From NCBI GenBank assembly GCA_044351685.1, contig JBILFK010000001.1:1-36307 (forward strand): a stretch of DNA of 36,307 nt. Direction: 5' to 3'. Below are positions 53 through 28,453 of this stretch, piece after piece. The DNA comes from Rickettsiales bacterium (GTDB lineage Bacteria > Pseudomonadota > Alphaproteobacteria > Rickettsiales > UBA3002). Each line of letters begins with the position of its first letter. Position 1 is the stretch's first letter. The notes beneath the pieces are model-generated. The model did no database searches and was not told the DNA's origin. It was given only the letters and a program-made list of their open reading frames with translations. The translations under genes and the position numbers were made by a program.

Positions 53-562
53 ATGCGCGCTATGGCAAAAAAATCACTACTGAAGAACTCCGAGGGCGCC
101 GCCGCTTTGGAATTTGCACTGGTATTCCCGGTGATGATTTTCTTTGTGATGGCCATTATCGAATTTGGCCTGATTATGCATGTCAACACGCTGGTCGATA
201 ATGCTACGCACGAAGGCGCACGCTTAGGCACCACCGGCAACACCTATGCTGACCTCAACGCCACCGGCTTAGAGCGCAAAGAATTTATCGATAGTTATAT
301 TCGCGATCAATTAGGTAACTGGGTGCGCAGTAGCGACCAGTTAAACGTGACCACCAAAATTATCGGCGCCAACATTGGTGCTGTGGGAAATAACTTAACC
401 ACGGTGGGGCATCAGGGATTTGGTAGTGGCGGCGAGGCCGTTGTCTATAATGTGCAATATAAGTGGCAAATTCTTACACCGATTATGGCCAATATCATTG
501 GCGAAGATGGCAATTTTCTTATGACCGCTACTGCTGTCGTGAAGAACGAAAATTTCAAATAG
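53..562 (+). CDS. TadE-like Flp/Tad pilus pseudopilin (minor pilin)
   Basis: 169-aa ORF. The N-terminal 'EGAAALEFALVFPVMIFFVMAIIEFG' hydrophobic segment followed by 'NATHEGARLG' is the classic TadE-like N-terminal domain. It sits beside further Tad-type genes. Confidence 0.8.
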   Translation: MRAMAKKSLLKNSEGAAALEFALVFPVMIFFVMAIIEFGLIMHVNTLVDNATHEGARLGTTGNTYADLNATGLERKEFIDSYIRDQLGNWVRSSDQLNVTTKIIGANIGAVGNNLTTVGHQGFGSGGEAVVYNVQYKWQILTPIMANIIGEDGNFLMTATAVVKNENFK

Positions 563-578
563 GCATATACCAACAGAG

Positions 579-1157
579 ATGACACAGAAAAAGCAGAGGA
601 TATTAGAACGATTCTACCGTGACGAAGGCGGTGTCGCCTTCCTTGAATTCGTGTTTATGCTGCCGGTATTTATTATCATTTTTTATGGGCTTATTGAAGT
701 ATCGCGACTCATTCAAATGCACCAAAAAATGGGAAATGCTGCGCATTCTGTCACCAATCTTATCAACCAGAATTTTAACATCAGCAATGCGCTGATTAAC
801 GAATATGCCAGCACACTTCCCGCGATGGTTTCGCCGTTCGATTCCGAAGGGGTGGGCATGATAGTCACTGCGATTGAAGTGCCGCTTACTGCCACGCAAC
901 CCATCACGGCGTGGCAACGCCAATCAGGCGTGGTGCGCGCCAGTCGCGTATCGGGCGGACAAGGCGCAGTGCCGACGCTGCCTTCGCTAGCGCTGGTGCC
1001 AGGAGATCAGGTGATTGCGGTGGAGATTTTCCTCGACTACCGCCCCATATTGGATAATGATACAGTGCGAACGATGCTAGGAATCTCGCCTGAAGGAGTG
1101 TATAAAGTAAGCATTGCACGGCCGCGCTTTGGCGCATTTAATTTACCACCAGCCTAA
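579..1157 (+). CDS. TadE/TadF-like Flp/Tad pilus pseudopilin
   Basis: 192-aa ORF with a second copy of the TadE-like N-terminus ('GGVAFLEFVFMLPVFIIIFYGLIEVSRL'). Same strand, 16 nt after the previous gene. Confidence 0.75.
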   Translation: MTQKKQRILERFYRDEGGVAFLEFVFMLPVFIIIFYGLIEVSRLIQMHQKMGNAAHSVTNLINQNFNISNALINEYASTLPAMVSPFDSEGVGMIVTAIEVPLTATQPITAWQRQSGVVRASRVSGGQGAVPTLPSLALVPGDQVIAVEIFLDYRPILDNDTVRTMLGISPEGVYKVSIARPRFGAFNLPPA

Positions 1158-1189
1158 ACGACCACCATTTAGAGAAGTGAAGGTGTGAC

Positions 1190-1933
<744 letters not shown>

Positions 1934-1981
1934 GAAAATATAGTGATGCGTGCGTGTAATATCGTTTTAGGGGAGATTCCT

Positions 1982-2962
1982 GTGAACCAGATGAAATGGC
2001 GTAATCGCGTAGCAGGTGCCGTGCTATGCCTCAGCACCGTGTTTGCTTTGACCATGTTACCGCATGCAACCTATGCAGCCACACTGAACAGCGATGCTGG
2101 CTTTGATGTGGCCGTGTTCATGCAGAACGATATCAACGTCAACGCCGATGGCGGTGGTGGCGGCGGTGTTGGTGGCGGCGGCGGTGGTGGTGGCGGTGTA
2201 CCACCCGTACCGCCTCCTGTTGGGCCGGTGTGCCAACCTGCGCAAATTCCTGCCGTTGTTGGCACCATCGATGCTGCCATTGCTGCGATGAACAATCTGG
2301 CACGCAATAGTGGCCAATTAAACGCCACCAAAGCCGCGCTCGATGCCGTGAGTGCAGTGAACAGTGAAGCGAACACCAGTGGCGGCATGCGCCAGCTGCA
2401 AGATGCGTTGCAGTTAGAATATGATTATCTACGAACCCTGAGAACCATCACCGTGCAGGAAGCTTACTGCGCACCTGCGGGAACCATGGTAACCACCTAC
2501 CCGCGCGAAGGCTGCATTCTTTCTGGCACGCCCATCACGCTTGCTGATGGCACCACCAAACCCATTGAAGCTCTGAACCTGAACGATGAGGTAAAGGGCT
2601 ATCTGGGGCCGGTGAAAATTATCGCGCTCAACAAATTCACCCAGCGCGAAGACTTCATGTACAGCATCAATGGTGGTGAAGCCTTCTTCACGGTAGAACA
2701 CCCGATTCTGACGCCGAAGGGCTGGAAATCGATCGATTCAACAATCACTTCCGTGAAAAGCGATATTAAAATTATCGGCACACTTAAAGTGGGCGATACC
2801 GTGCTGACGGCCGACCGCAAGGAAGTGGTAGTGAAATCGATTGATAAACACAAAATTTCCAAAGGTGTCGATGCGTACAACATCTCCACCGAAGGCGATG
2901 GCAGCTTTGTTGCCAATGGCTACATTATGAAGGGCTTCAAAAACGTGCAGATGCATTATTAG
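1982..2962 (+). CDS. Secreted protein with poly-Gly/Pro linker and C-terminal Hint (Hedgehog/intein-like, BIL-type) autoprocessing domain
   Basis: The ORF is open from 1943. GTG 1982 lies 6 nt after a GGGGAG Shine-Dalgarno; ATG 1991 is an alternative start. Signal peptide 'MKWRNRVAGAVLCLSTVFALTMLPHATYA'. Hint blocks: 'G|CILSGTPITLADGTTKPIEALNLNDEV' (Cys codon 2513-2515), 'FFTVEHPILT', 'LKVGDTVLT' and 'GSFVANGYIM'. Confidence 0.7.
   Translation: MNQMKWRNRVAGAVLCLSTVFALTMLPHATYAATLNSDAGFDVAVFMQNDINVNADGGGGGGVGGGGGGGGGVPPVPPPVGPVCQPAQIPAVVGTIDAAIAAMNNLARNSGQLNATKAALDAVSAVNSEANTSGGMRQLQDALQLEYDYLRTLRTITVQEAYCAPAGTMVTTYPREGCILSGTPITLADGTTKPIEALNLNDEVKGYLGPVKIIALNKFTQREDFMYSINGGEAFFTVEHPILTPKGWKSIDSTITSVKSDIKIIGTLKVGDTVLTADRKEVVVKSIDKHKISKGVDAYNISTEGDGSFVANGYIMKGFKNVQMHY
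2150..2197 (+). repeat. (GGN)n tract encoding G6-V-G9, followed by a Pro-rich linker
   Basis: GGT/GGC codon run interrupted by one GTT, directly after the signal peptide region of the Hint-domain protein. 'VPPVPPPVGPV' follows. Confidence 0.9.
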
Positions 2963-2987
2963 GCAGCACATGATCAGGAGAACAGCT

Positions 2988-4394
2988 ATGAAACCTATGC
3001 ACCATATGATCCGTACGCTGATTGCTGATACGCGGGGAAGTATCCTGATTGTGGGGGGTTTCTCGGTTATGACCCTCACTACGCTGGCCGCGGGTGCTAC
3101 CGAATTCGCCAATTTCGTGAACCGCAAAAACATGATTGAAAATGCCGCCGATAGCGCGCTGCTTGCTGCGGCAACCGTGTCGCGCTCGCAGGATATCAAC
3201 GCGGTGGTCACCAAGTTTTTCAATGCCAATATTCCGGATGAATACAAAGATTCAATTGAGCTGGGCGCCATCACGGTGACCACCAACCCCGATACGCTCG
3301 AATGGTCGGCCACCATTGATGCTAAAATTAAAACCAAACTCGCAAAATTCATTGGCTTTGATAATTTTAACATGCGGCACAAAGTTTCTGTGGCTTGGGA
3401 TATTTCCAAGCGCTTAGAGACGGTGTTTTTGGTCGATAGCTCGGCCTCGATGTGCACGAATACCGTGCGTTCAGAAAAAGAAGATGGCGCGTTCGTGCTA
3501 AAATATGAACCCGACTTTACCTGCAAAAAACTCACCGCCATGAAGCGTGCGATGAGCTACGTGATTGATAATGGCCTCTCGAGCATTCAGGGGCTTGGTG
3601 GGCCAGCATTCTATGCAGGTATTATACCCTTTAACCACAAGGTGCGCCTGCCGAATCTCGATTCAGCACCGGAAGCATTGATTGGCAGCGAAAAGAACCT
3701 GACTGCTGAAAAAACCGGCCTCGATAAAAACAAATTCAGCACGGGGGATGCTAACTACTTCACCGATTTCACCGACGCCGAACCACTCTCGCCAGTGATT
3801 CCGCTAAAATCATTGAATACGGACGCCGATAAACAGGAACTGAAGGCGTTGATCAATGGCATTAACCAAAGCCCGGTTGGCCGTGGCTGGACACGCTCGA
3901 ACATTGCCGCCCTAACGTCTGCGCTGATGTTGGATCCGGATAATTATGCCGCATTCGGCGGCGAGAAGCCGAATGCGTTTGAGCCCGGTAAAACCGATAA
4001 AATCGTCATCATGATGACCGATGGCGCCAATATCGGTTGCTGCTATGCCGCACACCCGGAAGGCAATTACGATAATCAGTATTTGTATCTCTACGAAGTT
4101 GATAACGCGCACATGGTGGGGCTTGAAAACATGCCGGAACTGGCACGTTATCAGCAAAAATATAATATCCCGCAAAAAGGTCTCTGCTCAGAAATGAAAG
4201 AGCAAGGCATCACCATTTACTCCGTGGTGTATGATGTGGATGACCGTGACCCGGGCGGCAGAGCGATTAAAAATGTGTATGAGCAATGCGCATCGAGCGA
4301 GCAGCATTATTTCGATGTGCACGATGAAGAGCAGTTGCAGCTGGCGTATAAAACCATTGCACAATCGCTACTGCGTCTGCGTATCACCTACTAA
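2988..4394 (+). CDS. TadG-like pilus assembly protein with von Willebrand factor A domain
   Basis: The ORF is open from 2970. ATG 2988 is preceded by AGGAG at 7-nt spacing. N-terminus 'TRGSILIVGGFSVMTLTTLAAGATEFANF...ENAADSALLAAA' is the TadE/G-like pilus-assembly N-terminal motif. vWA MIDAS 'VFLVDSSASM' and 'KIVIMMTDGAN'. Confidence 0.8.
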   Translation: MKPMHHMIRTLIADTRGSILIVGGFSVMTLTTLAAGATEFANFVNRKNMIENAADSALLAAATVSRSQDINAVVTKFFNANIPDEYKDSIELGAITVTTNPDTLEWSATIDAKIKTKLAKFIGFDNFNMRHKVSVAWDISKRLETVFLVDSSASMCTNTVRSEKEDGAFVLKYEPDFTCKKLTAMKRAMSYVIDNGLSSIQGLGGPAFYAGIIPFNHKVRLPNLDSAPEALIGSEKNLTAEKTGLDKNKFSTGDANYFTDFTDAEPLSPVIPLKSLNTDADKQELKALINGINQSPVGRGWTRSNIAALTSALMLDPDNYAAFGGEKPNAFEPGKTDKIVIMMTDGANIGCCYAAHPEGNYDNQYLYLYEVDNAHMVGLENMPELARYQQKYNIPQKGLCSEMKEQGITIYSVVYDVDDRDPGGRAIKNVYEQCASSEQHYFDVHDEEQLQLAYKTIAQSLLRLRITY

Positions 4395-8958: not shown

Positions 8959-11191
<2,233 letters not shown>

Positions 11192-11195
<4 letters not shown>

Positions 11196-12562
11196 CGCGT
11201 CACTCCGGTATCGTGGGCGGCGGCAAGCTCTTTCGGGTAAGCTGGCTGCACACTCGCTTTTTGCCGTATGATGGCGGGAGCGAAGGTGCTGGTTTGCCCC
11301 ATGTAAATCGTGGCATCGCCCGCCAATGCATCCACACCCGCATGGCGCTGTTTGGCATTGGTGATAATCGGTGCATCACGAAACCCGGAGCCAAACGCCC
11401 CACGCAACCCAGTTTCCTCTAGCACCTGTTCGCTAACCGGTGGAATGTTATTCTTTGGGTTGCCAAACATCAACCGATCGTAAAAGCGTTGCACCACGGT
11501 TTCATCCATCGATGGGATACCGGTTAGCGATCGATGCGGTTGCAGCATCATGCCGTTTTCTACCCGCATATCATGATCATGAATGTTATAGGCCAAGGCA
11601 AATTTGGCGGCATCGGTAATAGCGGCAATGTCTTCGGGCTTAAAGGGATCATCCTTGCGTAACGCCTCCAGATACCCACGCACCGCATCGCGCATATGCG
11701 CATCGCGGCCTTCATTGGATTTTTCAAACGCCGCCTGCTCGGCGCGTGCCAACACGTGATTCACGTTGATCGTGTTCCAGTGCGGTGTGAGCAGTTCAAG
11801 AATGTTCGAGCTATAGACATGCCCCACCGCAAATGGCTTGCTGGCCGATGGTGGTTGATAGCTGGCAATCGCATCGTGCAGTGTTTTGCAATCTTTGGCA
11901 TTCGTGATATCGACCAGCACAGCCGCCATACGGCCTGAAGTGGCAAGCTGATGCAAATGCGCATAGCCTTGCAGCTCACCATCTTCGCCGCGCAAGCTTG
12001 GGCATTCCTGCGTGAAATCATCAAAATTCATCTGCGCCAATATGCCGGGTTTTTCAACATATTTTTTACCGTTAAAATCCCAGCCCAGATTGGTCGGCCA
12101 CTCTGGATTCAGATACTGATTGCGCACCGTCTTGGTTTCAAACGCGCGCTTCAATGCTTCGGGCGAATCGAAATCGCGCAGCATGGCAATGAAACCTTTG
12201 TAGTTTCCCTCGCCTTTCCAGAAGGCAATCTGGTTCGGATTGATATCGATGAACACGCAGGCATCGGCGCGGCTGCGCACCGCCATATCGAGGTTGAAAA
12301 ATCCGGCAGCGCCCACATGCACATGCTGCGCATCGCGCGTTTCCGGGCGCACATAACTATCGGCGACATGTTCTAAAATGGCTTTGCGGCTACGCGATTC
12401 GCGCACCGGAAAGGTGTGAATGTAATGCGGCTTCACATCATACGGGCCGAACTGGCACTGCATATCGAGATATGCCTGCAACTCGCCCGGGTGCGCTTCG
12501 CTGGGTTTATCGGGCTTTTTGCCCCACCCCAAAATAATACGGTTTTTCGGAAACATCCCCAT
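11192..12562 (-). CDS. Hypothetical protein, possibly Rossmann/SAM-dependent-transferase fold
   Basis: 456-aa ORF. 'HVHVGAAGFFNLDMA...ACVFIDINPNQ' and 'VGHVYSSNILELL' loosely resemble class-I methyltransferase-fold motifs I/II and a late motif. No family recognised with certainty. A second ATG lies at 12556. Confidence 0.5.
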
Positions 12563-12680
12563 ACTGTACCAGCAAAATATGACAGTTTTGTGAGGAATGC
12601 GCTTATTTTCAGGCAGTTAGTGGGGTGATTTGTCATGCAATCATCACATTTCTTGGCGATGATTTTGCGTAAAATACACT

Positions 12681-14762: not shown

Positions 14763-14975
14763 GGTAGCCCCCTTGCGCGGATGCGCGGGTTAATAAATTG
14801 ATTTTCCATGACTTAACACGCCGCAAAAATGGCGCAACCCCTATCACCGCGCAATCGTCACACAAATATCATAAAATTTTATCTAATTATCTGTATGATG
14901 GAAATTGGAGTGAACTACGCCCTTCGTGTGCCTGCGCGCCTGCGCATGCCATGGGGGTGTGAACAAAGGAGAAGC

Positions 14976-16895: not shown

Positions 16896-16980
16896 TGACA
16901 ACATAGTGTCGTAGTGGGAAACAGCCATGAGCCCGCGAAGCGGCGCGAAGGACTAGCGAAGCGATGTCCGCAGCAAAAAA

Positions 16981-17490
16981 CTAACGTTTGCGGAAGGCTT
17001 CTAACGACACCACTTTTTCATCGTTGGCGGCGGTGGCATCATCTTTGGGTTCTTCTTCTTCGAAGCTGGCGCTTGATGGTTTTTCGCGGCCGGTTTTGCC
17101 GGTGGCGGGGCAGGCCACTTTTTCATCGACAGGTTGTTTGCCATGAAATTGTAGGCCGAATTTAATCGAAGGGTCGGCAAACGCCGTCAGCGCATCGAAC
17201 GGCACGACAAGTTTTTCGGGGATATTATTGAAGCTGAGCATGAGTGAGAAATACGTATCGGTCATGTGCAGATCCCAGAACTGGTGCTGCACCACGATGG
17301 TGATTTCCTCGGGGTAGCGCGCCTTTAACTGCGGCGAAATTTGCACACCCGGATAATGCGTTTGAAACGAAATGAAGAAATGATGTTCGCCCGGCAGGCC
17401 GTATTGCTGCACATGGGTCAGCGCTTGCCGCACCACGCTGCGCATGGCGGTGTCGATCATCAGCGGATAGTCTATTGTTTCATTCGTCAT
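16981..17490 (-). CDS. sspB: ClpXP adaptor SspB (alpha-proteobacterial type)
   Basis: 169 aa. 'LPGEHHFFISFQTHYPGVQISPQLKARYPEEITIVVQHQFWDL...PFDALTAFADPSIKFGLQF' closely parallels my recollection of the Caulobacter SspB-alpha substrate-binding domain. The acidic/flexible tail ends in a short basic ClpX-binding-like 'LEAFRKR'. Confidence 0.85.
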   Translation of the reverse strand: MTNETIDYPLMIDTAMRSVVRQALTHVQQYGLPGEHHFFISFQTHYPGVQISPQLKARYPEEITIVVQHQFWDLHMTDTYFSLMLSFNNIPEKLVVPFDALTAFADPSIKFGLQFHGKQPVDEKVACPATGKTGREKPSSASFEEEEPKDDATAANDEKVVSLEAFRKR

Positions 17491-17545: not shown

Positions 17546-17849
17546 GGCCATTGCTTCTGTTGCCCGGTGCAATGGCCAAAACCGCGTTACGAGCTAGAGC
17601 TCGTCAAGCCACACTAAGCGGCCAGACGGGCTGCTACGACGTTGTTGTCGTTAGCTGCAACGAGTGCTACGTTGTCGTTTGCACTTAAAAAGTGACCGAT
17701 TACAGCAGGTCACGCTGGGCAAAAGCCACATCTTTATTGCGTCTGTCGAAGCTAACTCGGCCCCGTAAATGGTGGAGCCGCCGGGTTCTGCCCCCGGGTC
17801 CAAATCGCCTATGCCATGTAGTGTTTATCGCCATAGTTCCCGAAGGAAC
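17546..17849 (-). ncRNA. ssrA: Two-piece (circularly permuted) tmRNA gene
   Basis: Minus strand: the acceptor piece ends '...GGAC-CCGGG-GGCAGAA-CCCGG-CGGCTCC-ACCA' (CCA 3' end at 17770). A 5-nt spacer TTTAC follows. The coding piece then starts 'GGGGCCGAGTTAGCTTCGAC' at 17764. GGGGCCG pairs with CGGCTCC, giving G3:U70 plus discriminator A. The tag reading frame is 17682..17614, GCA AAC GAC AAC ... = ANDNVALVAANDNNVVAARLAA-stop. The outer boundaries are approximate. Confidence 0.85.
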
Positions 17850-17855
17850 GCGTGC

Positions 17856-17884
17856 ATTATATAGCGTTGTGCGTCGGTAGTCCA
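17856..17884 (-). promoter_or_regulatory. Sigma70-type promoter candidate for ssrA
   Basis: Minus strand: TGGACT (17884..17879), a 17-nt spacer, then TATAAT (17861..17856). It is placed just upstream of the predicted start of the acceptor piece. Confidence 0.55.
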
Positions 17885-17972
17885 GCACAACGAGGGCTTA
17901 GCATCACGACACCTCACCCCCAGAATGTGACAATTCGGTGAAATGCGCAATTCCATCAAATTTTAGGCATTA

Positions 17973-18006
17973 TTGTCATCATGCTGTCACAGAACCACTG
18001 TAAAAC
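17973..18006 (+). promoter_or_regulatory. Pho-box-like direct repeat plus -10-like hexamer upstream of the 662-aa orphan
   Basis: TTGTCAT-CATG-CTGTCAC (17973..17990), a 10-nt spacer, then TAAAAC (18001..18006). The two heptamers match the E. coli Pho-box heptamer CTGTCA(T/C) at 13 of 14 positions with the canonical 4-nt spacer. The same 18-mer, differing at one base, occurs at 23356. Confidence 0.55.
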
Positions 18007-18031: not shown

Positions 18032-20020
18032 ATGCGTATGACAGTATTTTCAGCAGCACCAACGGCAACCTCACCCGCTCCGGCAGCTCCGGCTCCGGTT
18101 GCACCAGCAGCAGCGGCTCCAGCCCCTGCGGCAGCATCCGTCATTACTATCGGCGGGCAACAGGTGAATCTTGCGAATTTAAGCGTGGAAGATGGGCTTG
18201 CCATCTACCAAATGCTGACGCCAGAGCAAAAACGTCAGGCCGATACCATCGCTGGGTTCGTGCAAAACCACGAACGTACGCTCAATGTTGATATTCCTCA
18301 GAACCTGACACTCGAAAACGCGTATTCACAATATATGGCAGCATTGCGTACCGGTGGTGGCCAGCTTACCGACACCGCAGAGGGCTGGATGCGGCAGATG
18401 GATGCCGCTGTCGGCAATCAGGTACGCGGACAAATGCGTGAACAAATTCCTGGCTATGCTGCTGCAGAAACCGCTGGAAATACCGTTTCTTTCCTTGCCA
18501 ATGCAGGAAGCGCAGCTGTTGAAACGTTTTTCATGGTGCCGTTGTGGAGCCGTGGGCCTGGAGTCATCAGCAATCTGTTTTCTGAAGGTGCAGGGGCAAT
18601 CGGTCAAGGTGCAAGCCCCGAGCAAGCACATGCCTTTGCTGCTGCCTATGTGGCTGCACAAGCCGATGCTGATCGCCAGAATGCGGCCCCGAACGCTTCA
18701 CCTACCCAGCAAGCTCCAAGCTGGATAGATTCTGGCGTGGCGTGGGTGCAAGCTGCCTTCACCTGGTTGATGCATACCGTGCCGTTCATTCCACAAGTGT
18801 TCGAATGGATTGGCAGCGGCTTTGGCAGCTGGGCAGAAGCAGGCAACCGCGTGCATGAAAAACAAGCGCAAGAGCTGCGCGATTTAGGTGGCAACCTGGA
18901 TATTGGTAGCATGCAGCAACGTATTTTAAGCCGCAACGTGACACAGAGCACCGCCGAACGCACACGCCACACCGCAAGTGATATTTTAACCGCTGCTGGC
19001 CGTGTCGCTGATCTTGATGCAGCACCGATTGCAGGCTTGCTTGCCAATGGTGGTTTCTATCAGCGCCAAGATGGTACTCGTGCACGCGTGCGCCCCTTCA
19101 ATGGCACCGCGCTTCAAGAAGAAGTGCTGATGAACCCACAAACCGGTGAGCCAATCACCCGCCTGGATCGTGCGGGGAATGATGTTAGCTCGCTTATTCC
19201 TGGTAACGCTGATGGCGGTAGCTTTGATTTGACAAGCACTGCTGTGGGCACGGTTGCTGGTGGCGCGCTTGCTGCAAAATATCGCGTTCCTCAGCGTGTT
19301 GGTGGATTCATTAACAACAGAATTATTAGCCCGGTGACGGGTCTGGTTGGTCGTGAAGCAACAACGATTCGCACGGCGGCAAATGAAACCGCAGCACTCA
19401 GTCGCGCGGGCTATCTTGGGTTTGCTGGACAAGCGGCATCACCGCTGCTGCGTCGTGCAGGCTACGTGGGCGTAGCGATTGGTGCCGTAGGCGATGCCGT
19501 GTCAGTTGGCGATTCGGCCATCCATGGTGATGGTGCCGGTGTCGCAGTTCACGGCTCCGAGCTGGTAGGCACAGCTGCGGGCGGAGTAGGTGGTGCTATC
19601 GGTGGTGGTTCTGTAGGCGGATGGATTGGTGCTGGAGTAGGCACGGTTATTAGTGGCGTTGTCGGTTTCTTCTCGGGTGGAACGGGATTAGTTGCAGCAC
19701 CTGCCATTATTTCCGCTAGTACGGCCATCGGAACTGTTGCCGGTAGCGTTGCTGGTGGCTGGTTCGGTGCCGATGCAGGCCGGAACGTTGCGGGTGGCAC
19801 CGCGCGCGCACTAGTGGGAGAATCCGCAGTCGATGCGCGTAACAGAGAACAAGCTGATGCATCGGCACGCGTCGAAGCCGCCCGCGATCAGGCGAATGGT
19901 GCCACCGGCGGCTTCCGTTGGCCGTGGGAATCGGCAAGTGCCGATGCACCAGTAGACCCACGCGCTGTTGGTGCAGCAGCACCTGCACGTGGTACACCAA
20001 CCTTACTCGCCGCTGTCTAA
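18032..20020 (+). CDS. Orphan protein with Ala/Pro-rich N-terminus and C-terminal glycine-zipper membrane region
   Basis: 662-aa ORF. ATG 18038 has better spacing to the AAGAG Shine-Dalgarno than 18032. The N-terminus is 'APTATSPAPAAPAPVAPAAAAPAPAAA'. The C-terminal ~130 aa carry GxxxG/AxxxG repeats ('GGVGGAIGGGSVGGWIGAGVGTVISGVVGFFSGGTGLVAAPAIISASTAIGTVAGSVAGGWFG'). No Sec signal. Confidence 0.7.
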   Translation: MRMTVFSAAPTATSPAPAAPAPVAPAAAAPAPAAASVITIGGQQVNLANLSVEDGLAIYQMLTPEQKRQADTIAGFVQNHERTLNVDIPQNLTLENAYSQYMAALRTGGGQLTDTAEGWMRQMDAAVGNQVRGQMREQIPGYAAAETAGNTVSFLANAGSAAVETFFMVPLWSRGPGVISNLFSEGAGAIGQGASPEQAHAFAAAYVAAQADADRQNAAPNASPTQQAPSWIDSGVAWVQAAFTWLMHTVPFIPQVFEWIGSGFGSWAEAGNRVHEKQAQELRDLGGNLDIGSMQQRILSRNVTQSTAERTRHTASDILTAAGRVADLDAAPIAGLLANGGFYQRQDGTRARVRPFNGTALQEEVLMNPQTGEPITRLDRAGNDVSSLIPGNADGGSFDLTSTAVGTVAGGALAAKYRVPQRVGGFINNRIISPVTGLVGREATTIRTAANETAALSRAGYLGFAGQAASPLLRRAGYVGVAIGAVGDAVSVGDSAIHGDGAGVAVHGSELVGTAAGGVGGAIGGGSVGGWIGAGVGTVISGVVGFFSGGTGLVAAPAIISASTAIGTVAGSVAGGWFGADAGRNVAGGTARALVGESAVDARNREQADASARVEAARDQANGATGGFRWPWESASADAPVDPRAVGAAAPARGTPTLLAAV

Positions 20021-23296: not shown

Positions 23297-23355
23297 CAAA
23301 ACCAACATTCCTTCTTCACAAAACTGTAACAAAAATCCTCAGCATTTTGGCCGTT

Positions 23356-23389
23356 TTGTCATGATGCTGTCACATAAGATTGGTAGATT
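23356..23389 (+). promoter_or_regulatory. Pho-box-like direct repeat plus -10-like hexamer upstream of the 786-aa orphan
   Basis: TTGTCAT-GATG-CTGTCAC (23356..23373), a 10-nt spacer, then TAGATT (23384..23389). The geometry is identical to 17973..18006. A weaker box, TCTTCAC-AAAA-CTGTAAC, lies at 23313..23330. Confidence 0.55.
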
Positions 23390-23484
23390 CAGGGTAACAA
23401 TAAAAGCAATACTGTATTTAACAGCGCAAATGGATACCGCACAGATGACGAAAGCATCAACAGTAATAATTCTCGGAGGCAACC

Positions 23485-25845: not shown

Positions 25846-26097
25846 ACATTCCCCCTTTTCATTTTCGCGCAGCGTGCTATACTTTGTCTGTTCCTAATGT
25901 ATAGGCGGTGCGGCAAGGTAAGCAGCATCAAAGTTCACATGTAGGCTGCGTGTGTTACGTAAACACCCGCGCACACGGCTTTTGCAGCACACGAAGTGAA
26001 GCAAAATCCACGCACGTAGCATCGGTTGAACATGACGTTCGATTTTTATTTAAGGTTCGATGATTCGTTGAAGCTTGCCACCATGTGGCGGGGGCGT

Positions 26098-26112
26098 TGG
26101 CATTTGTTTGGC
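26098..26112 (+). promoter_or_regulatory. Sigma54-type (-24/-12) promoter candidate for the flagellin gene
   Basis: TGGCAT-TTGTT-TGGC has GG and GC at the canonical 10-nt separation (consensus TGGCAC-N5-TTGC). It ends 31 nt upstream of the preferred ATG at 26144. Confidence 0.35.
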
Positions 26113-26143
26113 CCGTTGCGGCATGAGCGTACGGGAGCACATC

Positions 26144-28453
26144 ATGACGATCTCATCCTTCAACCAATCGAGCAATTATAACGCAGCACTTTTTCCACTT
26201 TCGCGCGGTGCAGGCGCGATTGCAGATTCCACATACCGGCTAGCCTCGGGCAGCCGCTTCGCACGCGCAGGCGATGATGTGGCGGCGCTTTCCATTTCCA
26301 CGCGCCAGCAAAGCCAGCTTAGTTCGCTGCGGCAATCACTCGTCAATTCAGCGCAGGCGAATTCACTGCTGCAGGTGGCCTATGGCGGGCTATCGCAGGT
26401 TTCCGATTTGCTGACCAACCTGAAGGCGGTGGCCACACAGGCCAATTCCGGCACGCTCACTAATACCGAGCGCACCTTCCTGAACCAGCAATTCACCAGT
26501 TATCTGGATGAAATTGATCGTATCGCCAGCACCACCAGCTTTGGTGATGTAAAATTGCTCGATGGTTCCATCAGCAACGATAACAGCCTCACCACTGGCA
26601 ATGTCAGCGCCACCAACGCTACGGGTCAGCTGATATTCAACGCCAATATCGGTGCCGGGCAAACCGTGGTGTTAAACGGCGTAACATTCACCGAGGGCGT
26701 GAATTTTGCCGCAGGCATCACCACCAATGATTCGGTGCAGAATTTAGCCAATGCACTCAATACCAGCACCAACACGCTGCTTAGCGGCGCATCGTATCTG
26801 GCGGTCGGCGCATCGCTGAATATCACGGCCAAAGCCGGCGGCGAATTGGGGCGGCTTTACCGTATTTCTACCACCGGCACGGCCAACGATTCAGCCATCG
26901 GCAGCACCACCAATATTGCCACCACCGTGCTGCTGCAAGGCGGCAGCGATAACGGTATTTCGGCAGGCAGCACGCTGGCCAGCGGCACCATTGGCGATAC
27001 GATTTTAAACACCCAATCGCAGACAGCGGCCTTCAGCAATCTGGTGTTTTCCGGCAATGCTGCGGGTGGCCAAACCCTTACCATCGATAACGGCAATGGC
27101 GGCAACATCACCTTTAACTTTGTGGTGGGTGCGCCAGTAACCAATACGCAAATTCAGGTGGGCGCCACCACGCAGGATACCATTCGCAATATCGTTGGCA
27201 CGCTGAGCAATTACAGCGGCACCGACGATTATGTGATTCGCCAGCTGCAATACGATGTAAACGGCACCACCCTCACCATTCGTGGCCGCCTGCCCGGCAC
27301 CGTGAATGATCTGGTTTCCGTTGCCGCAAACGTTGGCGAAACCATTGCTAACGCGGTATTTTCCAACGGTGCGCTTAATAACGGTACTGCTACCGGCGTC
27401 AGTACCGTGGGTATCAGCAACCCCGATTTTGTCGGTAGAATTTCGGGCTTCAGCGGCACGTTTTTGGGTGCCGATAACATCACTCTTAGCCTCACGGTGG
27501 GCGGCAGCACCTATAGCGGCACCATTGCCGATACCACGCCTGCAGCCAACACCACAGTGCGCTTGAACTCAACGAATGGCGGCTATTTTGACATTGAACT
27601 GCGCGCAGCCAGCGGGCTTACCGTGAATAACGCCAGCGATGCCACCGCCTTTGCCGCGCGCATTGATAACGCATTTTCGACATTGAATTTTACGCAGGAA
27701 CGTGCGGTCACCAGCCTTACAGGTGCGGGTGCATTGGCGGGCGGCAGCGCGTTTTTTCGCGGCGAAGATTTTTCGGCGCGGCGCATTGATAGCATCGATG
27801 TCACCGAAAGTGCTGCTGGCGATGCGCGCATTGTGATTAGCGTGAACGGCGAAACCTTCCGCAGTCAAAGCGGCATTGGCAATGCCGTGGGTGCGCGCCA
27901 GCGATTAACACTGGTAAGCGATAGCGATGCTAACCGCAGCCTCACGATCGTGAATGGCAGCGTGGGTAGCAGCCTTACCAACAGCACAGAGGCCAGCGAT
28001 TTCGAGGCCGATTTGCGCGCCAGTTTTGGTACCGATTACGCAGGCAATGGCACACTGACTTTTGCAGTGAGTGAGGGCAGTGATATTGGCGTGCGCATTC
28101 GCGGTGCGGGAACCGAGCGGCTGTTTAACAGCAGCATCCCCAGTGTGGAAACGCAGGTGAATGCTGGTAACGCAATTAGCGCCATTGACGACGCCGCCGA
28201 TGTGTTAGGCGAGGTGCTTGCAGAGGTAAGCAGCAGCCAGGCACGCCTGCAATTTAACGATGCGAATTTATCGAGCAGCATTAGCAATATCGATGCGGCG
28301 CGCAGCGTGCTGGCCGATACCGATATCGCCACCGAATCGACACGCTATGCGAGTTTGCTGGTGCAGCAACAGGCTGGCATTGCGGTGCTGGCACAAGCGC
28401 AATCGCTGAGCAGCAGCCTGCTGGAATTGGTGCGGGTGAAGCTGCTTAGCTAG
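26144..28453 (+). CDS. Giant flagellin-family protein (~770 aa)
   Basis: The ORF is open from 26075. ATG 26144 follows GGGAG at 6-nt spacing. The N-terminus 'RLASGSRFARAGDDVAALSISTRQQSQLSSLRQSLVNSAQANSLLQVAYGGLSQVSDLLTNLKAVATQANSGTLTNTERTFLNQQFTSYLDEIDRIASTTSFGDVKLLDGS' follows the flagellin D0/D1 pattern. The C-terminus 'SSSQARLQFNDANLSSSISNIDAARSVLADTDIATESTRYASLLVQQQAGIAVLAQAQSLSSSLLELV' follows the flagellin C-terminal pattern. The central ~500 aa are Thr/Asn/Gly/Ser-rich and include 'flagellin IN'-like segments such as 'VVLNGVTFTEG...NDSVQNLANALNTS'. Confidence 0.8.
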   Translation: MTISSFNQSSNYNAALFPLSRGAGAIADSTYRLASGSRFARAGDDVAALSISTRQQSQLSSLRQSLVNSAQANSLLQVAYGGLSQVSDLLTNLKAVATQANSGTLTNTERTFLNQQFTSYLDEIDRIASTTSFGDVKLLDGSISNDNSLTTGNVSATNATGQLIFNANIGAGQTVVLNGVTFTEGVNFAAGITTNDSVQNLANALNTSTNTLLSGASYLAVGASLNITAKAGGELGRLYRISTTGTANDSAIGSTTNIATTVLLQGGSDNGISAGSTLASGTIGDTILNTQSQTAAFSNLVFSGNAAGGQTLTIDNGNGGNITFNFVVGAPVTNTQIQVGATTQDTIRNIVGTLSNYSGTDDYVIRQLQYDVNGTTLTIRGRLPGTVNDLVSVAANVGETIANAVFSNGALNNGTATGVSTVGISNPDFVGRISGFSGTFLGADNITLSLTVGGSTYSGTIADTTPAANTTVRLNSTNGGYFDIELRAASGLTVNNASDATAFAARIDNAFSTLNFTQERAVTSLTGAGALAGGSAFFRGEDFSARRIDSIDVTESAAGDARIVISVNGETFRSQSGIGNAVGARQRLTLVSDSDANRSLTIVNGSVGSSLTNSTEASDFEADLRASFGTDYAGNGTLTFAVSEGSDIGVRIRGAGTERLFNSSIPSVETQVNAGNAISAIDDAADVLGEVLAEVSSSQARLQFNDANLSSSISNIDAARSVLADTDIATESTRYASLLVQQQAGIAVLAQAQSLSSSLLELVRVKLLS

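Follow-up and report, generated by a model that had tools for sequence, protein, structure and literature searches.

Pho-box-like promoter elements upstream of lineage-specific genes in an uncultured Rickettsiales bacterium

The window analysed here is a 36,307-nt stretch of DNA from an uncultured Rickettsiales bacterium. It carries two nearly identical strings, each upstream of a large gene of uncharacterised function (orphan 1 and orphan 2), and the question raised by the locus is whether these strings are promoter elements of a phosphate-responsive regulator and which genes such a regulator would control. In a Pho box, a heptamer close to CTGTCAT occurs twice in direct repeat with a 4-nt spacer in between, which gives two 11-nt units (PMC4415409). 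The original prediction had assigned both genes to a PhoB-type regulon or, alternatively, to another OmpR-family regulator with an identical half-site. The PhoB-type reading was supported in silico by the match to a PhoB matrix, the 11-nt repeats, the 10-nt spacing, the missing -35 element, the intergenic location, the conservation before distant orthologues and the use of the same box at Pho genes elsewhere.

Sequence, position and spacing of the two strong boxes

The two strings that had been quoted are present in the window; their first bases are 17960 and 23344, so that the coordinates originally given are each too high by one. The divergently oriented ssrA (minus strand) and orphan 1 are separated by 150 bp, and this spacer contains site 1; site 2 is found in the 304 bp that separate orphan 2 from the DUF2748 gene (Table 1). 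At both sites the heptamer pair was followed by exactly 10 nt and a TA-initiated hexamer, as had been noted originally. The pattern TTGTCAT-N4-CTGTCAC gave two matches in the whole window with up to two mismatches tolerated, compared with an expectation of 0.21 from dinucleotide-preserving shuffles. With CATG and GATG as their 4-nt spacers, the two strong boxes are less A/T-rich in this part than E. coli boxes are. The 10-nt gap recurred in the boxes of the window and its relatives, and the hexamers behind it were TAAAAC, TAGATT, TAGTGT, TAGGTT, TAGATT and TACAGT; the putative -10 of site 1, TAAAAC, is without the usual final T.

A TTGACA-like -35 element was sought 16-18 nt upstream of each putative -10 by reading the sequence, and none was found at either site. 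The half-sites themselves were rejected as an ordinary sigma-70 -35 because the distance to the -10 is wrong for such an element, being 22 nt for TTGTCA and 11 nt for CTGTCA. A generic promoter scan of the plus strand gave no match at either site. The consensus elements of sigma-54 and ECF promoters are GG-N10-GC and GGAAC/CGTT, respectively. These elements were absent from the sequence as read, and both promoter types were discarded.

The second site had been described as an almost verbatim duplicate of the first. The strings are indeed near-identical, but no duplication was found, as the two proteins are not paralogues and the 18-mer recurs at Pho-regulon genes of unrelated bacteria. Hence, the shared box is no by-product of gene duplication, which was rejected as its source. 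A repeat or mobile element was likewise rejected because the two sites resemble each other over no more than about 35 nt.

To evaluate the strength of the boxes, both strands of the window were scored with a log-odds matrix; the 59 sites behind it are those listed for E. coli PhoB in a ChIP-seq study (PMC10294691, Table 1). The matrix is gammaproteobacterial and the host is an alphaproteobacterium. When the sites of the matrix were scored by leave-one-out, 2 of the 59 (those of E. coli pstS and phoB) reached the level of the two boxes. The maximum score of randomised windows was 13.9 ± 1.9 bits, and one window in 200 reached 20.14 bits. The chance estimate of about 0.01 in the original prediction was of the right order.

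Table 1. Candidate Pho boxes, putative -10 elements and associated genes of the window.
Feature	Position	Strand	Description
Proximal Pho box, orphan 1 (site 1)	17973-17990	+	TTGTCAT-CATG-CTGTCAC = TTGTCATcATGCTGTCAC; 20.51 bits, rank 1 in window
Putative -10, orphan 1	18001-18006	+	TAAAAC (or AAAACT, one base on); 10 nt past box
Orphan 1, 660 aa	18038-20020	+	Helical N-terminal domain (~30-390), then glycine-zipper hydrophobic C-terminal region
Inverted box	17926-17943	-	TTTCACCGAATTGTCACA; 17.87 bits, rank 4; 48 nt upstream of site 1 box, faces ssrA
ssrA, two-piece alphaproteobacterial tmRNA gene	17546-17888	-	Rfam RF01849, 174 bits; divergent from orphan 1
Proximal Pho box, orphan 2 (site 2)	23356-23373	+	TTGTCAT-GATG-CTGTCAC = TTGTCATgATGCTGTCAC; 20.14 bits, rank 2 in window
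Putative -10, orphan 2	23384-23389	+	TAGATT; 10 nt past box
Distal box, orphan 2	23313-23331	+	(T)CTTCAC-AAAA-CTGTAAC(A), CTTCACAAAACTGTAACA (23314-23331); 18.41 bits, rank 3; 43 nt upstream of site 2 box, same strand
Orphan 2, 786 aa	23485-25845	+	N-terminal hydrophobic segment; ~90-nt conserved leader
Box, lipase-like gene	14856-14873	+	CGTCAC-ACAAA-TATCAT(A), CGTCACACAAATATCATA; 15.64 bits; precedes 451-aa lipase-like gene
Lipase-like protein, 451 aa	14895-16250	+	GHSYG nucleophile-elbow motif; start codon uncertain
Box, DUF7790 gene	12578-12596	-	(T)CCTCAC-AAAA-CTGTCAT(A), CCTCACAAAACTGTCATA (12578-12595); 14.23 bits; precedes 456-aa DUF7790 gene and 377-aa operon partner
Putative -10, DUF7790 gene	12563-12568	-	TACAGT; 10 nt past box; ATG 6 nt later (12556)
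Two-gene operon, 456-aa DUF7790 and 377-aa proteins	10062-12562	-	Start and stop codons overlap
Weak box	12631-12648	+	TGTCATGCAATCATCACA; 13.69 bits, at noise ceiling; precedes GNAT acetyltransferase gene

Further boxes in the window, in relatives and in other bacteria

The seven best matches of the matrix (at least 13.5 bits) were all intergenic. The intergenic share of the window is 6.7%, and the seven matches fell in 2340 nt, compared with 0.088 expected from composition-matched randomisations, none of which reached this number (0/2000). Matches of at least 13.5 bits were sought in the roughly 34 kb of coding DNA of the window, and none was found. According to these scores and to the sequences in Table 1, the candidate regulon appears to exceed the two promoters named originally and would include at least four promoters within the window. 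The weak box before the GNAT gene is doubtful as a Pho box; the nearest good -10 (TAAAAT) is 22 nt away, which is not the canonical spacing. The role of the inverted box at site 1 is uncertain because it is present in L008 and absent from L002 and L065.

The boxes were kept ahead of orthologues with 34-80% protein identity in four relatives (L001, L002, L064 with two sites, and L065). For the orphan 2 orthologue of L001 (44%), the proximal box TGTCATCATGCTGTCACA occupied the orthologous position and scored 20.51 bits, and a distal box of 16.48 bits was found at the same 43-nt offset as in the window. The -10 of L001 was TAGTGT, which has A2 and T6 in common with the TAGATT of the window. The entire upstream stretch of about 170 nt was approximately 85% conserved in L001, and the box there was no better kept than its flanks. 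This was the exception. The flanks had diverged at three of the four promoters and were unalignable in L002 and L064. The orphan 1 orthologue of L002 (80%) had a 17.7-bit box in the same place in an otherwise unalignable promoter, with four half-sites at an exact 11-nt period (CCTTCAC, CTATCAC, CCGTCAT and CCGTCAT) that were followed by 10 nt and TAGGTT. In L065, a relative with 61% GC, the orphan 1 orthologue (34%) was preceded by CGTCATCAAACTGTCACA with 19.45 bits, compared with 5.6 bits for the runner-up, and by TAGATT after a further 10 nt. The contig of L066 begins 2 nt past the box and was unusable for box scoring.

The other two promoters were also compared with those of relatives. The box of the DUF7790 orthologue in L064 (49%) was identical at 18 of 18 positions and was followed by TAGAGT, 6 nt and ATG. 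The top match for the lipase-like orthologue of L064 was CGTCATACAAATATCATA (15.71 bits), which stood in an isolated 39-nt island of 92% identity, and the lipase-like orthologue of L002 had a 13.2-bit box upstream. The half-site variants of the relatives, CGTCAT, CTTCAC and TATCAC, all occur among the PhoB-bound sites of E. coli, for example at phnC, pnp and rhsE. Functional PhoB sites are conserved and strictly spaced, and inert sites are mostly intragenic and unconserved (PMC10294691). Judged by position and conservation, the boxes of the window would fall in the conserved, spacing-correct, intergenic class.

The exact 19-mer TTGTCATNATGCTGTCACA was searched in 185,579 GTDB species genomes, and metagenome contigs were also scanned. 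The species genomes contained 20 matches, which is about the chance number for 18 specified bases. Neither these 20 nor the 33 metagenome matches, all single, came from the source lineage. Matches outside Proteobacteria were mostly inside genes. The proteobacterial intergenic matches were located upstream of pstS, the exopolyphosphatase gene ppx, phoB, the Porin_O_P phosphate porin and, in two Sphingomonas, the PHO4 transporter. At the five activator-type Pho-regulon promoters with the 19-mer, the hexamer 10 nt past CTGTCAC was TAAATT for pstS, TATCGT for ppx, TCTAAT for phoB, and TTAAAT and TATTAT for the porins. The arrangement in the two Sphingomonas was of another kind: the Pho box lay about 35 nt ahead of the PHO4/PiT start codon (L024, 5620-5665; L020, 3070-3114), no -10-like hexamer stood at activator spacing, and three tandem half-sites were present in L024. 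From its layout, this may be a repressing arrangement.

Genes behind the boxes and their surroundings

Orphan 1 had been given as a 662-aa reading frame. The start at 18038 is likelier and gives 660 aa, in agreement with an AAGAGAA Shine-Dalgarno sequence and the public gene call. The name orphan has to be withdrawn in part. When residues 1-481 of orphan 1 were used in an exhaustive HMMER search, its N-terminal region of about 400 aa had homologues in at least 51 representative clusters (450-1291 aa), and a single homologue with 44% identity was found for orphan 2, on L001. The matches in the orphan 1 family were always N-terminal, and the C-terminal glycine-zipper pattern was kept in the family consensus. 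Comparison of orphan 1 with Pfam and NCBIfam gave no family, and Pfam across the family gave DUF6861 alone, in 4 of 42 members. The N-terminal domain was modelled by AlphaFold with pLDDT above 90, and a Foldseek search of the model against the PDB found no neighbour (best E 0.77). The domain is thus predicted to have a confident fold that is unmatched in the PDB.

The alleles of orphan 1 were mosaic or hypervariable. The promoter and 5' end in L008 and L066 were identical to those of the window, and the proteins behind them were 59% (L008, full length) and 43% (L066, N-terminal 481 aa) identical. A second allele, P0006 (86% over 55%), was present in the same sample, and several assemblies break at or beside the orphan 1 box (loci compared: L002, L008, L009 and L066). 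The mosaic alleles, the co-occurring second allele and the assembly breaks suggest diversifying selection or recombination at orphan 1.

The divergent neighbour ssrA was missed by an ARAGORN run for tmRNA. Its 5' end is fitted by a sigma-70-like promoter, TGGACT-17-TATAAT, at 17884-17856 (minus strand). The gene adjoins sspB (16981-17490, minus strand), which encodes the adaptor for ssrA-tagged proteins. The synteny of ssrA and orphan 1 was kept in L002, L008 and L065, and the order sspB-ssrA-orphan 1-thyX was kept in relatives. A 57-nt GC-rich element (…CCATGAGCCCGCGAAGCGGCGCGAAGGACTAGC…) lies at 16922-16978 between tadA and sspB; L001 has two tandem copies (863-919 and 927-983) with 95-98% identity just upstream of the orphan 2 promoter. 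By its sequence and placement, the element looks like a small dispersed intergenic repeat.

Orphan 2 had no match among Pfam and NCBIfam families or PDB sequences. Its leader (23396-23484; 1078-1166 in L001) was about 85% conserved, compared with 68-75% for the flanking coding DNA, and contained a small palindrome, CTGT-N5-ACAG. An upstream open reading frame was rejected, as the 20 codons in the window are not kept in L001, and so was an RNA structure (-6.3 kcal/mol, no covariation).

The AlphaFold model of the DUF7790 protein had a pTM of 0.67 and a core that was predicted to be Rossmann/methyltransferase-like. Foldseek matched this model to 6ulo at E 3.5e-4 and to SAM methyltransferases at weak scores; an uncharacterised Leptospira protein was the only match apart from the methyltransferases. 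Betaine-lipid synthesis is a classic Pho function, and a BtaA-like role was considered for DUF7790 and found to be unsupported. The 377-aa partner had a glutamine-synthetase-C match below threshold (22.6 bits, cutoff 24). Because a -10-like hexamer, 6 nt and ATG occur both in the window (12556-12568) and in L064 (4306-4319), the DUF7790 mRNA is probably leaderless and starts at 12556. In that case, translation would begin at the second ATG (12556), which lies two codons within the annotated reading frame.

The 451-aa protein is a possible class-3 lipase, as judged from its sequence. A Lipase_3 match around its GHSYG motif was below threshold (E 0.067; 13.5 bits, cutoff 22). The GxSxG serine was invariant in three orthologues with SYGVD kept, the motif being GHSYG in two and GYSYG in L002. 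A recognisable phosphate-related function was sought among all box-preceded genes with Pfam, NCBIfam, PDB sequence and Foldseek searches, and none was found.

The window also carries tadA, ettA, thyX, msrB, the DUF2748 protein gene, mreBCD and Tad pilins. The same genes as in the window were found on two contigs of JGI sample 3300059473. The region 53-4394 (plus strand) contains two TadE-like pilin genes followed by genes of three proteins with sub-threshold (Vint, VWA) or no Pfam matches, and a Tad pilus locus probably ends here; no other secretion-system genes were found in the window. A giant flagellin of 776-792 aa (26075-28453, plus strand) has Flagellin_N and Flagellin_C ends and an insert of about 530 aa. 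A 1368-aa protein without detectable family (28476-32582, minus strand) is encoded downstream of a RimB-like/7TM-transglutaminase/ATP-grasp cluster. The matrix scan placed no PhoB-type box at the giant flagellin gene or the 1368-aa protein gene. In the flanking DNA, 10 kb to either side, his, aro and pur genes and a large PAS histidine kinase are present, and phoB, phoR, pst and phoU were not found there. The his, aro and pur genes and the kinase indicate that the genome is not strongly reduced, and a PhoR/PhoB system is therefore plausible.

Proposed regulation, alternatives and comparison with known Pho systems

The boxes are most readily explained as binding sites of a response regulator of the PhoB type. 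This regulator would most likely be the organism's own PhoB orthologue, and the explanation as a whole is given a probability of roughly 70%. From the observed sequences, scores, geometry, location and conservation we infer the regulator, its signal and a mode of action by activation rather than repression. Under phosphate scarcity, PhoR would phosphorylate PhoB, and a PhoB dimer would bind the two 11-bp repeats head-to-tail in place of the missing -35. The bound dimer would contact region 4 of sigma-70 and recruit RNA polymerase to the -10, which lies 10 bp downstream. At least four transcription units would be switched on in this way, namely, orphan 1, orphan 2, the DUF7790/glutamine-synthetase-like operon and the lipase-like gene. 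At sites 1 and 2, the additional boxes further upstream may permit cooperative binding, as at E. coli pstS. A motif alone is no guarantee of regulation, as many E. coli PhoB sites are transcriptionally inert, and the definition of a regulon needs binding-site and expression data together (PMC10294691).

The architecture of 11-nt direct repeats that replace the -35 is common to the whole OmpR/PhoB family. The boxes may thus belong to a different member of this family with a TGTCA half-site, which would respond to a different cue, for instance one from a host or the envelope, and regulate lineage-specific envelope or secreted proteins. The box-preceded genes would suit such a regulator, as all of them are uncharacterised and lineage-specific, and no phosphate-acquisition gene is among them. 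However, the half-sites of OmpR, PhoP, PmrA, CpxR, KdpE and CtrA differ from those of PhoB, and the boxes outscore 57 of 59 genuine PhoB sites. Moreover, pstS, phoB, ppx, porin and PHO4 genes of other Proteobacteria, including Alphaproteobacteria, are preceded by the identical 19-mer. Control by a different family member is considered unlikely on balance. It was also asked of site 1 whether its box serves the divergent ssrA instead of orphan 1. The box is 85 nt from the ssrA 5' end, and the inverted 17.9-bit box faces ssrA. Nevertheless, strand, spacing and -10 layout of the strong box relative to the protein gene are those of site 2, where no RNA gene is present, and ssrA has a good sigma-70-like promoter of its own. 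L002 and L065 lack the inverted box; L008 has it in a promoter that matches that of the window except for the hexamer behind this box. Service to ssrA is hardly credible on these grounds.

The boxes may also be remnants of a promoter cassette that was copied by duplication or recombination and has no current role, or they may be bound but transcriptionally inert. A few bases beyond the core are common to both sites (ATTTT-GGC upstream and A-AA downstream), and the mosaic alleles of orphan 1 place identical promoters on coding regions that are 43-59% identical, both of which favour such a cassette; inert PhoB sites, for their part, are common in E. coli. The copying of a cassette is opposed by the absence of paralogy between the two proteins and by the short reach of the upstream similarity, which ends within about 35 nt. 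Both forms of this explanation are opposed by the persistence of the boxes ahead of orthologues that are 34-49% identical, with diverged flanks at three of four promoters (not L001). Furthermore, inert sites are typically intragenic and unconserved, whereas the boxes of the window are intergenic, conserved and correctly spaced. A copied or inert element is judged very improbable.

If binding by a PhoB-type regulator is correct, at least five proteins whose function is wholly unknown would gain a first functional handle, namely, induction by phosphate starvation. Orphan 1, one of these proteins, is the founder of a family that comprises at least 51 clusters and has an unmatched fold. More speculatively, phosphate limitation or a PhoB-like signal may be a master cue for rapidly diversifying lineage-specific envelope or exported proteins, including the undescribed orphan 1 family, in which a helical domain is joined to a glycine-zipper membrane segment and mosaic alleles stand behind a frozen promoter beside ssrA. 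The proteins would in that case be factors of competition or host interaction and not phosphate-scavenging enzymes. If the PhoB-type explanation is right, the E. coli ChIP-seq matrix would also prove to be well transferable to a distant lineage and able to delimit a regulon from one metagenomic contig.

The arrangement was compared with known systems. Like the boxes described here, the E. coli pstS, phoA, phoH and phoB promoters have two CTGTCAY repeats, a 4-nt spacer, no -35 and 10 nt to the -10, and tandem extra boxes are found in some of the E. coli Pho promoters as well. The box TGTCATCATGCTGTCACA resembles those of E. coli phoH, TGTCATCACTCTGTCATC, and phoA, TGTCATAAAGTTGTCACG. The locus differs from the E. 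coli Pho promoters in its uncultured alphaproteobacterial host, its less A/T-rich spacers and its genes without known phosphate function. PmrA boxes precede Dot/Icm effector genes in Legionella and Coxiella. PhoB-activated virulence factors are reported for EHEC (PMC3978041). As in the window, the EHEC PhoB boxes and the PmrA effector boxes are OmpR-family direct repeats that stand directly ahead of the -10 in many genes that are unrelated to each other, evolve fast and have no known function, so that a regulon can be predicted from the box; unlike in those systems, the Tad pilus genes are the only secretion-system genes in the window. The Pho regulons of Caulobacter crescentus and Sinorhizobium meliloti share the regulator family and the box type (PMC4415409; PMC11208175). 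Those regulons were defined by ChIP-seq and expression, whereas the present one is proposed from DNA sequence. The composition of Pho regulons differs strongly between species (PMC11208175). In sequence, the element matches the defining features of PhoB-dependent promoters in E. coli and Alphaproteobacteria. No new regulatory principle is revealed. The switch itself is of a known kind, and what is new is the set of cargo genes placed behind it.
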